In this document: piece after piece, positions 12,187 to 54,680 of the stretch
Layout of the letters: each line of letters opens with the position of its first letter
How positions within the stretch are numbered: the stretch's first letter is position 1
Assembly: GCA_018657385.1 (NCBI GenBank)
Contig: JABHXF010000028.1
Span: 1,472-65,471 of the forward strand
Direction: 5' to 3'
DNA from: Candidatus Woesearchaeota archaeon
Lineage (GTDB): Archaea > Nanobdellota > Nanobdellia > Woesearchaeales > DSVV01
DNA: 64,000 bases
Translations under genes and position numbers: made by a program
The notes under the pieces: generated by a model
What the model saw: only the letters and a program-made list of their open reading frames with translations
What the model was told of the DNA's origin: nothing
Database searches by the model: none

Positions 12187-12253
12187 GATTTTAATGTTTT
12201 TAATAGTTTAATTCTTTAATATATGTATAAATAATTTGGTCAGACCAATCTTT

Positions 12254-22613: not shown

Positions 22614-22712
22614 TTTTTTTTACCTTCTTTACCTTTAAACATATTTTATTCTTAAACATATTTTTCTTTGTTTTTTACTTTTTAATATCACTTTCTTCTT
22701 GTAATACAACAA

Positions 22713-22775
<63 letters not shown>

Positions 22776-22788
22776 AATCTACAAAAGA

Positions 22789-27753: not shown

Positions 27754-27824
27754 AGGTTATATTTATTTAAAATCTGATAATATACCTGGATGAAAAAATA
27801 ATAACAATGGTCAGGCGAACATTT

Positions 27825-27901: not shown

Positions 27902-27943
27902 ATTGTTAATATACTAAGTGTTAATATACTAAGAAAAAAAAGA

Positions 27944-31251: not shown

Positions 31252-31395
31252 TTAAGTTGAGAAGATGAGATAATATTAAAAGTTTGTTAATTTTATAGGG
31301 TGGTGGGTGGGGGCTCCTAGGGGGATGGTTAATCTTTTCTCACTAATATTTATAAAATTAAATTACATTAAAACAAAATTAGTTTAAAATAAAAT

Positions 31396-33471: not shown

Positions 33472-33556
33472 CTAGGTTCGGAGTACTTTCAAACTTGTTT
33501 GGAAGCTCAATAATCTCGATGAAGTAGGGATTATTTTTGCGTATTTCCCGTGACTT
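33472..33556 (+). terminator. GGACCTAG box, copy 4 (degenerate and split by an about 50-nt insertion)
   Basis: The plus strand reads CTAGGTTCGGAGTAC ... TTTCCCGTGACTTTAATTTTT, starting 31 nt after the 76-aa ORF stop. Confidence 0.35.
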
Positions 33557-33590
33557 TAATTTTTCATTAGTTTTATTACGTTAATAGAAA

Positions 33591-33678
33591 AAATAACAAC
33601 AACAAAGGCATGGACGGACATTTTTCTACGAAAAATATCCTATTCGGCTTCGCCCCATCCGGCCATTGTTGTTATTTT
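33591..33678 (-). ncRNA. Family 1 structured element, copy C
   Basis: The minus strand reads AAAAUAACAACAAU-GGCCGGAU-G-GGCGAAGCC-GAAUA-GGAUAUUUUUC-GUA-GAAAAAUGUCC-GUCCAUGCC-UUUGUUGUUGUUAUUUU. Confidence 0.6.
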
Positions 33679-40136: not shown

Positions 40137-41135
40137 ATGATAGTCTTAGGGATTGAATCAACTGCACATACATTTGGAATTGGTATTGTAAATGATTCTA
40201 GAAAAGGAGAAAAGAAAGTATTAGCTAATGTTAAAGATACTTTCACAACTAAAAAAGGTGGTATAATCCCTGCAAAAGCAGCTGACCACCATGTTGATGT
40301 ATGTGATATTGTATTAAAAGATGCTTTGGCTATTGCTAAACTTAAATTAGAAGATGTTAATGTTATTGCATATTCTCAATCACCAGGAATTGGACATTGT
40401 TTAAAAATAGGAGCAATGTTTGCGAGAAGTTTGTCTGCTAAATACAATAAACCTTTAGTTGGAGTGAATCATTGTATTGCTCATTTGGAAATAGGAAGAC
40501 TTGTTACTTCTGCTAAGGATCCTGTTTTATTATATTTGTCAGGAGCAAACACACAAGTAATTGCATATGAAGGAAAAAAATATAGAATATTTGGAGAAAC
40601 TTTAGACATGGGTATTGGTAATTTCCTTGATAGTTTTGCAAGAGATTTAGGTTTAGGTTTTCCAGGTGGACCTGTTGTTGAAATATTTGCTAAAAAAGGA
40701 AAATATGTTGAACTTCCTTATTCTGTGAAAGGTATGGATATGAACTTTGGTGGAATGCTTACTAATCTTAAACAAAAAATTAAATCTGGAAAGTATAAGA
40801 AAGAAGATTTATGTTATTCTATTCAAGAAACTGCTTTTGCAATGATGGTTGAAGTTGCAGAAAGAGCTCTTGCACACTGTGATAAAAAAGAATTATTATT
40901 AGGTGGCGGAGTCGCATGTAATAAACGATTACAAGAGATGTGTAATAAGATGTGTAAAGCTCGAGGAGCAAAAATGTTTGTACCAGCTAATGAATTCCTT
41001 GTAGATAATGCAGCAATGATAGCTTGGCTTGGTTTATTACAGTTTAAAGCTGGTGATAAGTTGAAGATAGAAAAAGCAGATATTAAACCTTATCTAAGAA
41101 CAGATGAAATTGAAGTTAAATGGCGAAAAGATTAA
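40137..41135 (+). CDS. kae1: tRNA N6-adenosine threonylcarbamoyltransferase Kae1
   Basis: 332 aa. It starts MIVLGIESTAHTFGIGIV, and GVNHCIAHLE carries the metal-binding His pair. It has the ASKHA fold. Confidence 0.9.
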   Translation: MIVLGIESTAHTFGIGIVNDSRKGEKKVLANVKDTFTTKKGGIIPAKAADHHVDVCDIVLKDALAIAKLKLEDVNVIAYSQSPGIGHCLKIGAMFARSLSAKYNKPLVGVNHCIAHLEIGRLVTSAKDPVLLYLSGANTQVIAYEGKKYRIFGETLDMGIGNFLDSFARDLGLGFPGGPVVEIFAKKGKYVELPYSVKGMDMNFGGMLTNLKQKIKSGKYKKEDLCYSIQETAFAMMVEVAERALAHCDKKELLLGGGVACNKRLQEMCNKMCKARGAKMFVPANEFLVDNAAMIAWLGLLQFKAGDKLKIEKADIKPYLRTDEIEVKWRKD

Positions 41136-41149
41136 TTCTTTGTTTTTTA

Positions 41150-41181
41150 CTAGGTCCTGAGGACATGTTTCCCGTGATTTT
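41150..41181 (+). terminator. GGACCTAG box, copy 5
   Basis: The plus strand reads CTAGGTCCTGAGGACATGTTTCCCGTGATTTT, starting 14 nt after the kae1 stop and followed by AATTTTT. Confidence 0.45.
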
Positions 41182-41214
41182 AATTTTTCATTAGTTTTAT
41201 TACGTTAATAGAAA

Positions 41215-41299
41215 AAATAACAACAACCATGGCACAGACGGACTTTTCTTTCAGAAAAATCCTACTCGCCTAACGGCTCGCCTGGCCAAGTTGTTATTT
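41215..41299 (-). ncRNA. Family 1 structured element, copy D
   Basis: The minus strand has P1 GGCCAGGC/GUCUG-U-GCC, in which the G-C pair of copy A is replaced by A-U. P2 is GCC-GUUA-GGC, the junction is GAGUA, and P3 is GGAUUUUUC-UGAAA-GAAAAGUCC. Confidence 0.65.
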
Positions 41300-41322
41300 T
41301 CTCATCCAGTAATGTTATGAGA

Positions 41323-41355
41323 TTTAAAGATTCGCTTGGCCAAATTGTTGGATTT
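41323..41355 (-). repeat. Truncated 5' half-copy of family 1 (D')
   Basis: The minus strand reads AAATCCAACAATTTGGCCAAGCGAATCTTTAAA, which is an outer-stem 5' arm plus a P1 5' arm only. A 6-bp hairpin (TCTCAT...ATGAGA) and then copy D follow. Confidence 0.5.
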
Positions 41356-41391
41356 AAAAAGACATTATATAAATTAGAATAAAAAGAAAAG

Positions 41392-43344
41392 CTACATCTT
41401 TAAAATCTTCTTCAATATTTTTTCTTTGCCTTTCCAGTCTAATACTTCCTTAAGAACTTCTGATAATTTAGTTACTGGAATAATTCTTATTTTATTTAAT
41501 TTATCTGAAGATAATACAATGTCTCGTAAATTAGATTTTGGAACAATTACATTTTCAATACCTGCATCAACTGCTGCTTCTACCTTTGCAGATAACCCAC
41601 CAATAGGCAATACATCTCCTCTAACAGACAAAGAACCAGTCATTGCATAGTTTTGTTTAACTGGAATTCCTTTTAATGCTGAGATTACAGAGGTTGCAAC
41701 TGCTATACTAGCAGAGTCTCCTTCAACACCTTCATAAGTTTGTAAAAACTGAACATAAAGATCATATTTTTCTCTAATATCATCTCCAAAATATTTTTTA
41801 ATAATTGCAGTAACATTCTTGACAGCTTCTTTTGCTATTTCTCCTAGCTTACCTGTTGCAACTATCTCTCTTTCTTTACCACCAGGAGTTACTTCTGATT
41901 CAATTGGTAAAATAATTCCTGAAAACGCACCTTCACCACCAATTACAGCTAAACCATTAACTCTTCCAACATATTTCCCTGTTACTCTTATTACTTCATA
42001 TTCTTTTTTTCTCTCAATATATTTATCAGCTAATTGTTGTTCAAGAGTTCTTGCAATCATTTTTGCATCTTTAATATGTTGTTTAGTTACAAGCTTTGCA
42101 CCTTTTTCTAAAGCAAGGTCACCAGATGCTCTTACTAGACCTCCAAGTTCCCTTAATCTTAAAGTTAAATGATCTTTTCTGTTTGCTCTTTTTCTTGCTT
42201 CTTCAATAATCTCTAAAATTGCTTCTTTGTTAAAATGAGGTATTTTACCATCTTTTATTACTTCTTGTGCTATGAATCTTGCTATTGTAAAACGATTTTC
42301 TTTTGTATCTTCCATAGTATCTTTCATATAAACTTCATAACCATATCCACGAATTCTTGAACGTAATGCAGGATGCATTTTCTTAACTGTTTCTAAATTT
42401 CCTGCAGCAATTAAAACAAATTTACATGGAACAGGTTCTGTTCTAACCATTGCTCCTGCAGATCTTTCAGACTGACCAGTAATAGAATATTTACCTTCTT
42501 GTAATGCAGTTAATAATTCCTGTTGTGTATGTGGTTGTAATGTTGCAATTTCATCTACAAACAAAACACCAAGATGAGCTTTATGAATCATTCCTGCAAC
42601 TACTCTTTCATTTGAAGGTGTCCCTAAACCACCAGATTGGAAAGGATCGTGAAGTACATCTCCTAATAATGCACCTGCGTGAGCACCTGTTGCATCAAAA
42701 AATGGTACTTTACTTTTGTTAAAATTGTCAACAACTAATTTTGGTTTGTTTCCATTTCTAGATCCACCCATCTTTTTTCCAAAATTAAGAAACATTACAA
42801 ATGCAACTAAGAAAAACATACCACCAATAAAAAATGCAGTAAACATAATTGCAGCAGCTGTTGCTCCTAACTTTTCTTCATAAACTTTTAATATCCACCA
42901 TGGTGCTAACATTGCCAAGATTGCTAAGAAAAACATTAAGAAGTTTTGATTCTTAAACATCTTGCTGCCTTCCATTTTTGATCGTACCACTTCTTCTCTT
43001 CCTCTTCCTGCAGGAACTGTTCTAATCATTGGCTTGTTTTCATCATTTGGATTAGGATAAGAAATAATATCAACTAATTTTTCTTTAGGAAGAAGCTCAG
43101 CTAATGCTAAACCTAACATAGACTTACCTGTTCCAGGTTCACCTATTAGAAAAACATGTCTTCTTTGAGAAGCTGCCTTCCTCATTACTTCTACAGCATC
43201 ATCTTGACCAATAACTTGATCAAGAATTTTTTTAGGAACTTTTATCTCTTTAGTACTAGAAATATCTAGATTAAGATTTGGTAAAACTTTTTTTTCTGAT
43301 TGTTCTTTTTTTAATAGTTTTTTCCTAACCTTTGATTTAACCAT
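41392..43344 (-). CDS. lonB: Archaeal membrane-bound Lon protease (LonB)
   Basis: 650 aa. GEPGTGKS is the Walker A motif, two TM helices are inserted in the AAA+ module, and EGDSASIA carries the proteolytic Ser. Confidence 0.9.
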
Positions 43345-46704: not shown

Positions 46705-46817
46705 AGCCCCGTAGTGTAGTGGCCCATCATCCTGGATTTTGGAAGGCGGAAAAGTGGATTTTTCTGTGTTTCCCCTGGGAATGTCCTGGGACCTCGGTTC
46801 AAATCCGGGCGGGGCTA
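46705..46817 (+). tRNA. tRNA-Gln(UUG) with a 40-nt intron at the canonical 37/38 position (46743-46782)
   Basis: The acceptor stem is AGCCCCG/CGGGGCU with an A1-U72 pair, as I recall for archaeal tRNA-Gln. The T arm is CUCGG-UUCAAAU-CCGGG and the anticodon loop is UUUUGGA. A 3-4-3 bulge-helix-bulge can be drawn, and CCA is not encoded. Confidence 0.8.
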
Positions 46818-54571: not shown

Positions 54572-54680
54572 AAATTACCAACAATAATGGTGGCAGACGG
54601 CCATTTTCTTTCAGAAAATGTCCTATGGTCCACCCCGGAAGGGACAACCCCCAGATCATCTGCACCATTGTTGGTGATTT
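54572..54680 (-). ncRNA. Family 1 structured element, copy H (long-P2 subtype)
   Basis: The minus strand has P1 GGUGCAGA/UCUGC-C-ACC. P2 is GAUCU-GGGGGUUG-UCCC-UUCC-GGGG-U-GGACC, then AUA, and P3 is GGACAUUUUC-UGAAA-GAAAAUGGCC. Confidence 0.6.

Follow-up and report, generated by a model that had tools for sequence, protein, structure and literature searches.

How should an intergenic stretch be understood that holds, one after another, incomplete and complete copies of one folded repeat together with a copy of a second one: as a mobile element nested in an older relative, as one long non-coding transcript, or as a cluster of repeats with histories of their own? Locus D raises this question. 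It occupies the 256-nt gap between the convergent genes of TsaD/Kae1 (+ strand) and LonB (- strand) of a Candidatus Woesearchaeota archaeon whose genome comprises 1.54 Mb in 60 contigs with 29% G+C. Positions without a contig name refer to the window, by which we mean the whole stretch of 64,000 nt that was analysed (C54:1472-65471). We suggest, with a confidence slightly above even, that locus D represents a REP/BIME-like mosaic of independent structured intergenic repeats lying between convergent genes, and that it is neither one element nor one RNA gene.

A first-pass annotation of the window had offered two other readings. According to the first, a mobile element inserted itself into an older copy at a fixed position; according to the second, the half-copy is a promoter-proximal or alternatively pairing segment of a transcript of roughly 200 nt. 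Taken as a whole, this interpretation is partly supported, and the parts that stand and fall are given below together with the evidence.

Anatomy of the locus

Five parts had been proposed for positions 41150-41355, read on the minus strand: a half-copy, TCTTTAAATC with a 6-bp hairpin, a complete core, an A/T-rich spacer and a box. All of them are present at these coordinates. Together with the flanking genes they are arranged as follows, S0 and P1 being stems of the core.

40137-41135, + strand: gene of TsaD/Kae1 tRNA threonylcarbamoyltransferase (PF00814, 269 bits)
41136-41149, + strand: gap from the TsaD stop codon to the box; its T run, TTTGTTTTTTA, is a candidate terminator of the archaeal oligo-T type
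41150-41181, + strand: box of the alpha type, a REP-like unit, reading AAAATCACGGGAAACATGTCCTCAGGACCTAG on the minus strand
41182-41210, - strand: A/T-rich spacer between core D and the box
41211-41303, - strand: complete core D of subfamily II (covariance-model match 41305-41210, 94 bits)
41300-41325, - strand: half-copy 2, AAATCTCATAACATTACTGGATGAGA, a degenerate 5´ arm of subfamily I
41326-41330, - strand: TCTTT, directly after half-copy 1
41331-41355, - strand: half-copy 1, AAATCCAACAATTTGGCCAAGCGAA, a 5´ arm only, with S0 and P1 up to GCGAA (nhmmer score 13.5)
41392-43344, - strand: gene of archaeal LonB protease (Lon_C, LonB_AAA-LID)

Both flanking genes have orthologues in the sister species, a congener, at 84% identity for TsaD/Kae1 (with a conserved neighbour) and 81% for LonB. 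LonB and half-copy 1 share a strand, and 36 nt separate the LonB stop codon from the half-copy downstream of it. The junctions of the locus are reproduced with 0 differences in independent marine metagenome contigs, which cover 40700-41188 in X1, X4 and X13, 41272-41800 in X1 and 41272-41748 in X4. Because contigs from independent samples reproduce both junctions, the locus is not an assembly artefact.

Core D folds as a three-way junction with the outer stem GAGAAAATAACAAC / GTTGTTATTTT, P1 formed by TTGGCCAG/CTGTGCCA, P2 by GCGAGCC-GTTA-GGCGAGT with tandem G.A, and P3 by GGATTTTTC-TGAA-AGAAAAGTCC. Upstream of it, folding of the segment 41325-41300 predicts the 6-bp hairpin (TCTCAT/ATGAGA) of the earlier annotation, and the segment itself turns out to be a second, degenerate half-copy. 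When TCTTTAAATC and the hairpin segment are taken together, they match the subfamily I arm AAATCCAACAACATGGCTGGATGAGA (the GGATGA variant) at 21 of 26 positions; intergenic 26-mers score 10.3 +/- 1.6, and only 0.075% of them reach 21. The final GAGA of half-copy 2 overlaps the extended outer stem of core D. Half-copy 1 has 17 nt from its TGG to the next AAATC, which is the usual junction before a copy of subfamily I. Since half-copy 1 obeys this 17-nt rule and half-copy 2 the 13-nt rule described in the next section, the locus reads half, half, full.

On the + strand, the box of locus D reads CTAG-GTCCTGAGGAC-ATGTTTCCCGTGATTTT, with a 4-bp hairpin beside CTAG and T runs on both sides, and it begins 14 nt past the stop codon of TsaD. 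Transcription in archaea generally terminates at oligo-T, and the intervening T run is listed as a candidate terminator for this reason. Against an expectation of 0.02, the window contains the box pattern 7 times.

Two features of the window lie apart from the locus. At 46705-46817 (+) there is a 113-nt match to tRNA (RF00005, 40 bits), presumably intron-containing, which was missed by ARAGORN and by the whole-window Rfam gathering search. An intergenic tandem array of about 20 copies of ACTT is found at 22705-22784.

Core copies, half-copies and the sister species

The whole genome harbors 100 full copies of the core according to nhmmer and 112 according to the covariance model. Its structure was tested on an alignment of 35 copies and comprises the outer stem S0, P1, the P2 hairpin, prolonged by a tandem G.A, and the P3 hairpin. 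In this alignment, 98.5% of cells are paired and 15 pairs are changed on both sides, i.e. compensatorily; no shuffle and no slid register comes near. The extended P2 is further backed by a C-G/U-A pair, with GGGCGA/GGATGA accompanied by GAGTA/GAATA (26 and 8 sequences). As G.U pairs are frequent, the fold is strand-specific. The outer stem, an inverted repeat of 12-14 nt, divides the copies into two subfamilies, AAATCC...GGATTT (I) and AAATAAC...GTTATTT (II). Of 31 related genomes, 12 contain the core; the covariance model counts 79 copies in the congener and 11-31 copies in each of four further genomes of the family, belonging to three genera. Rfam gave 0 matches at the gathering score, and up to E = 10 no match rose above chance level. 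A hammerhead-like junction was rejected on inspection, the junction being almost fully paired and devoid of conserved core nucleotides.

Many cores are followed, 3-10 nt past the outer stem, by the A/T motif TTAAYATAKTAARAA (for example at 27921-27935). It is seen whether the next module is a box or the reverse complement of a GNNA-hairpin module described below, and it may be promoter-like or a piece of the copied unit.

Half-copies are a genome-wide phenomenon. With nhmmer, a 5´ arm was found at most 70 nt upstream and on the same strand at 15 of 100 cores, and the downstream or reverse-strand controls gave 0, 0 and 0; an independent local alignment again gave 15 of 100 upstream, against 1, 0 and 2 in controls. 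At a looser threshold, 22 half-copy loci were listed. A loose regular expression for degenerate half-copies was dropped due to its high background. The half-copies reported before cores A (12233-12250) and B (27803-27820) are confirmed. The one claimed for core H (ATATGGTGAG near 54680) comprises only about 10 nt and we rate it as weak. Both readings of the first-pass annotation presumed that half-copies would be neither missing elsewhere in the genome nor placed at random distances; they are indeed frequent, strand-specific and located at fixed distances.

The distance from TGG to the outer stem of the following core is 17, 17, 17, 17, 16, 16 and 13 nt before cores of subfamily I (loci A and B, counted by hand, likewise have 17 nt), and 13 nt six times and 9 nt twice before cores of subfamily II. 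Half and core belong to opposite subfamilies in 19 of 19 loci: all ten subfamily I cores are preceded by a half with an AAA(A/T)AACAAC-type stem and all nine subfamily II cores by a half of the AAATCCAACAAC type. Two or three halves are stacked in alternating order at locus D, C44:18141, C18:5736 and C27:33556. A fixed break position, as had been proposed, does exist and lies just after GGCCRGRYGA. The half-copies are degenerate, whereas in full copies of subfamily I the arms agree with their consensus at 93%. The strict alternation of subfamilies among half-copies of the same strand is the one unexplained regularity of the locus; a quick disappearance of homotypic direct repeats, and not recombination, might account for it. 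Core 3´ half-copies, GTCCGTCTGTGCC...GTTGTTATTTTCTC plus spacer, also occur, as tandem arrays of 2-3 units at C33:66590-66810 and C36:21819-21976; they mirror the 5´ half-copies and are much rarer.

We compared the whole genome of the congener, with 877 gene pairs defined by reciprocal best hits (median protein identity 70%). Its gap between TsaD and LonB is empty and measures 38 nt. Out of 486 syntenic gaps, 39 hold a core or box in the present genome, and 27 of these are empty in the congener; another 12 are occupied in the congener only. There are only three truly orthologous cores, kept at about 71-95% identity. Two of them show 92-95% and rank first among the 68 cores of the sister species, and the third, a long-insert variant with a box, ranks second. 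Given the 27 empty gaps out of 39 and the mere three orthologous cores, most copies are lineage-specific, and the empty sites speak for that part of the insertion reading which presumed a duplicative origin at the DNA level. Because a few cores are kept far better than neutral intergenic DNA, there is room for a function of the core. Its strong structural conservation, the strand-specific G.U pairs and the three kept orthologues would also fit a functional RNA, and a description of the core as a selfish repeat may be incomplete. For locus D itself, the conservation at an orthologous position that is expected of an RNA family is absent, as the congener gap is empty.

Neither nhmmer nor local alignment found a half-copy at any of the 68 cores of the sister species. 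With none there and about 80% of cores lacking them in the present genome, half-copies are not a conserved part of the element.

Related genomes thus provide an empty site at the level of the sister species. Within the population none was seen in the contigs of eight DNA metagenomes, searched over the locus and a 20-kb stretch; the population is almost clonal, and metagenome contigs break at repeats. In six metatranscriptomes from the same studies, the organism was represented by nothing more than short matches that are due to chance or to repeats.

If half-copies were the visible half of simple nested insertions, the 3´ remainder of the outer copy should be found downstream. Among 22 half-copy loci, a single one has such a remainder of the outer subfamily, just as 1 of 22 subfamily I controls does, and 3´ arm matches follow only 3 of 100 cores. 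Simple nested insertion is therefore not supported: the remainder is missing in 21 of 22 loci, and the halves invariably belong to the other subfamily. Orthologous intergenic DNA of the sister species is too diverged to define insertion boundaries or a target-site duplication.

A more elaborate variant of the insertion reading is self-targeted, structure-specific transposition. The target of a mobile core would here be single-stranded DNA of a resident core of the other subfamily, which it would enter at the P2 foot after GGCCRGRYGA; the 3´ part of the resident would then be lost or never kept. The fixed breakpoints fit this proposal, as do the strict polarity (halves are only upstream and on the same strand), the alternation in all 19 loci and the stacks at the four loci named above. 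Half-copies are moreover limited to the one genome that carries a transposase gene of the Y1/IS200-like (HUH) class beside a box. This gene (PF01797, 104 bits, C3:37420-37854) is the single one of its kind in the genome; a box follows directly downstream, and upstream the contig ends in core-like GTTGTTATT. However, the hairpins at the ends of the Y1 element are unlike the core or the box, and the sister species has no Y1 gene despite its 34 boxes and 68-79 cores. No young intact nested example was found, the outer 3´ remainder is as rare as in controls, and degenerate halves with identical junction lengths are more easily derived by descent from few events. We therefore consider self-targeted transposition unlikely.

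Among the 31 relatives, Y1 genes occur sporadically, 1-2 copies in 14 genomes, and bear no relation to core counts. The search for a RAYT-type partner yielded the single Y1 gene here and none in the sister species, and no partner enzyme for the copying was found. The Y1 gene beside a box is a lead towards a RAYT-like partner and not evidence of one. It is conceivable, although we would give this idea rather little credit, that the alternating half-copies are footprints of an undescribed "replacement" mobility in a DPANN archaeon. A structured single-stranded copy of one subfamily would be deposited at the P2 foot of a resident of the other and would replace everything downstream without a target duplication. 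Template switching at the folded junction, or an enzyme of the Y1/HUH kind, might bring this about.

The box and its association with the core

The box, GGACCTAG, is a repeat separate from the core. About 52 alpha and 11 beta copies are scattered over the 1.54 Mb, all of them intergenic, which makes it an extragenic palindrome of many copies. The alpha copies read AAAA-TTCNNGAGAAACAY-GTCCTCCGGAC-CTAG-TAAAAAAA, with a conserved unit of about 32 nt. Alpha boxes carry GTCC-N3-GGAC (a 4-bp hairpin) and beta boxes GGC-N3-GCC (3 bp); both types are solo units in the present genome. One copy shows a compensatory GCCC/GGGC change, and the CTAG tag is found in nearly all copies of both types. Among the 31 relatives and 185,579 species genomes, boxes are confined to the present genome and its congener, Candidatus Woesearchaeota archaeon SI074_bin25. 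Viral contigs contained no match, and a viral origin was rejected. So was a short ORF within the box, as the copies differ by a 1-nt indel and ATG alternates with ACG.

The placement of boxes follows stop codons. In 43 of 52 alpha copies the next downstream gene lies on the opposite strand (binomial P = 2e-6), and in most of these 43 its stop codon is 9-52 nt from the box. Ten of the 11 beta boxes follow the same rule when written in the equivalent orientation, the distance for both types together ranging over 9-55 nt, and the congener shows the same bias (26/32). Boxes are located downstream of coding regions, and box-bearing gaps are convergent in 25 of 46 cases, compared with 139 of 923 among all gaps. 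Because of this orientation bias towards stop codons, we regard the T-rich strand as the natural reading of the box: stop codon, T run, A-CTAG, hairpin, ATGTNNCTCNNGAA, T run. By the same rule, the box of locus D goes with the end of TsaD and not with a minus-strand transcript. It faces the opposite way from that in which the first-pass annotation had joined it to the core; sharing the sense of TsaD, it also counts against the transcript reading.

In the congener, the box forms the left arm of a longer element, which continues with a central hairpin of 37 nt, then either of two right ends and finally a T run. Right end type 1 consists of a second arm in inverted orientation, whose small hairpin differs (CTAG-GGCGGAGCC-AATGT...), and type 2 is ATTGCGGATGCTCTTTTTCACTAGG. 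The two types of hairpin arm pair in opposite orientation into a larger fold. The central hairpin has 0 copies in the present genome compared with 21-31 in the congener.

Several further modules accompany the boxes and cores. A box variant at 33472-33560 (-) contains about 53 nt inserted between ...GGGAAATAC and GTACTCCGAACCTAG; the inserted segment, GCAAAAATAATCCC...GTTTGAAA, has two small hairpins and five genomic copies. The G-rich module GGGTGGTGGGTGGGGGCTCCTAGGGGGATGG then TTTTCTCACTA is found at 31290-31330 (+) and on other contigs, upstream of several boxes. It carries CTAG and, at its 3´ end, is similar to the right end (…TTTTTCACTAGG) of the sister-species box element. Finally, the module AACAGGCCGNNAGGCTCTTTTTGTTCTGA combines a 4-bp stem with a GNNA loop and a T run (e.g. 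C25:11340-11370 and C27:41540-41570). It counts 38 copies here and 7 in the sister species, lies 11-57 nt past a gene of the same strand in 23 of the 38 and thus looks like a hairpin-type terminator module. Cores often adjoin its reverse complement.

Core and box are two independent families: a box is missing at 79 of 100 cores, and roughly every second box stands without a core. They are nevertheless associated: 24 intergenic gaps hold both, where 4.3 are expected (P about 1e-14), and in convergent gaps alone there are 13 against 4.9 expected. In 24 of 25 cases the core precedes the box on its 5´ side, with the same orientation in 21 of these and the reverse in 3, most commonly at a spacing of 40-44 nt. 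The order differs in the congener, where the box comes before the core and cores lie inside the longer box element.

Joint copying accounts for part of this association. The segments 41168-41260 and 33544-33636 are 89% identical across the core 3´ half, the spacer and the box leader, and we conclude that these three were copied together, in a unit larger than the core. The P2 and P3 hairpins of the two segments differ, and several other core-box composites have common spacer types; the copies are therefore recombining mosaics. Joint copying of core, spacer and box would also explain the fixed spacing of 40-44 nt.

The box might alternatively be the start of a small transcription unit of its own, with TTAAYATAYTAAGAA, about 25-30 nt upstream of TTCNNGAG, as a promoter-like A/T motif. 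The unit would yield a structured RNA of about 90 nt ending in a T run in the sister species, and in the present genome only its first ~25 nt would be left, from which transcription would enter the convergent gene at its 3´ end in antisense direction. Many boxes have the motif upstream, whether or not a core accompanies them, and the full elements of the sister species are built as a leader, hairpins and a T run. However, position-specific information upstream of the A run is near zero in both genomes, and a positionally fixed TATA was rejected for this reason; TATA-like strings are common because the genome is 71% A+T. The orientation bias fits a 3´-end element of the neighbour gene equally well. 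We find this proposal rather improbable.

Very improbable, in our opinion, is a single non-coding RNA of about 200 nt composed of half-copies, core, spacer and box, in which the half-copy would act as a switch by pairing with the 3´ arm of the core; it could do so in principle, being homologous to the 5´ arm, the composite is predicted to fold better than shuffled sequence (z = -3.55) and the core-to-box order recurs 21 times, but the minimum-energy and centroid folds predicted for the 226-nt stretch keep the three-way junction and leave the halves out, the halves are degenerate, and the core is reversed in 3 of 24 composites. P1 reads CAG in subfamily II, whereas the 3´ arm of subfamily I has CCG; as we read these variants, a II half before a I core would moreover give an A.C mismatch at the covarying P1 pair. 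The competing segment of a switch-like leader would be conserved across the family; here it accompanies 15-22 of 100 cores, with 0 of 68 in the sister species, where the orthologous site lacks the locus altogether. The transcript reading of the first-pass annotation, whether promoter-proximal or based on alternative pairing, is not supported on these counts.

A possible history and its known counterparts

Returning to the mosaic, we propose the following model. In it, the core belongs to an old, patchily distributed repeat family of about 90 nt that forms a three-way junction on one strand, and the two upstream half-copies are decaying relics of 5´ arms. In a few founder events, a 5´ arm of one subfamily might have been joined to a full copy of the other. 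Joins at short common homologies, for example GAGA, would result in the fixed 17-nt and 13-nt junctions. The leader-plus-core units would then be copied as DNA to new sites, and recombination in the common arm between both kinds of units would stack the leaders alternately, giving the layout of locus D (x-half, I-half, II-full). As the junction lengths are common while the sequence decays, we favor few founder events followed by copying over repeated targeting. This history is inferred from common junction lengths and degenerate features and is not a reconstructed genealogy; directly shown are the anatomy of the locus, the copy numbers, the rules of orientation, the empty orthologous site, the restriction to certain lineages and the missing remnants of nested insertion.

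The box, in the same model, is a younger, genus-specific REP-like unit that follows stop codons directly and whose T-rich strand has the sense of the gene it follows. That of locus D belongs to the TsaD gene end on the + strand, in the zone of the putative oligo-T terminator. Cores would either land beside a box or travel with it, and core, spacer and box were probably copied jointly in some lineages, e.g. at locus D and the 33.5 kb locus. From its position and from what is known of REPs, a role in termination and 3´-end formation, or in stabilisation of transcript 3´ ends and of read-through transcripts, can be imagined.

There are several reasons why such a dissection matters. DPANN genomes are very small, yet roughly 1% of the DNA here consists of folded intergenic repeats (a hand estimate from ~100 cores of ~90 nt, boxes and other modules). 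Splitting the composite separates possibly functional features, namely the core junction and the box after stop codons, from the historical debris of half-copies, and any terminator or 3´-end role must satisfy the orientation rules of the box. Two congeneric genomes with different combinations of modules present a natural system for the origin and spread of REP-like repeats in archaea, and the strict alternation of subfamilies in stacked half-copies may point to the mechanism of copying.

REPs are extragenic, structured, many-copy sequences that mostly follow coding regions and lie between genes of convergent or co-directional arrangement, with an unpaired tetranucleotide tag, GTAG or CGTC, beside a small G+C-rich hairpin; BIMEs are clusters of alternating subtypes and other short motifs, and the families are species- or genus-specific (PMC3733652). 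The repeats of locus D are likewise high-copy, extragenic, structured and found downstream of genes. The box, CTAG with GTCC-N3-GGAC, places a tag beside a hairpin, and the box arms of the sister species recall REPINs in that two hairpin types pair in opposite orientation. Clusters of alternating subtypes with other short motifs, and families restricted to a species or genus, resemble BIMEs. On the other hand, the tag is CTAG and neither GTAG nor CGTC, the host is an archaeon (DPANN / Woesearchaeota), and the core, a 90-nt three-way junction with tandem G.A, is far larger. BIMEs are composed of inverted full units, whereas partial and full copies alternate here in the same orientation.

Small size, structure, multiple intergenic copies and lineage-specific expansion are also typical of MITEs and PATEs, non-autonomous derivatives of IS elements among which are palindrome-associated elements of archaea derived from IS200/IS605, and the outer stem of the core is formally a terminal inverted repeat of 12-14 nt. 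Here, however, neither a parent IS with matching ends nor a target duplication nor a fixed flanking tetranucleotide could be demonstrated, and the sole IS200-like element of the genome has unrelated end hairpins.

The BOX elements of Streptococcus pneumoniae (boxA-boxB-boxC) and similar small modular repeats are intergenic composites with variable combinations and copy numbers of modules and with stable folds; they are not known to have a transposase. Locus D, too, may be regarded as a composite whose separable modules are combined variably. The two are unrelated in sequence, and the modules of locus D differ in taxonomic range, one of them following stop codons in a fixed orientation. Among these counterparts, we see locus D as an archaeal version of the mosaic intergenic clusters represented by REP/BIME.
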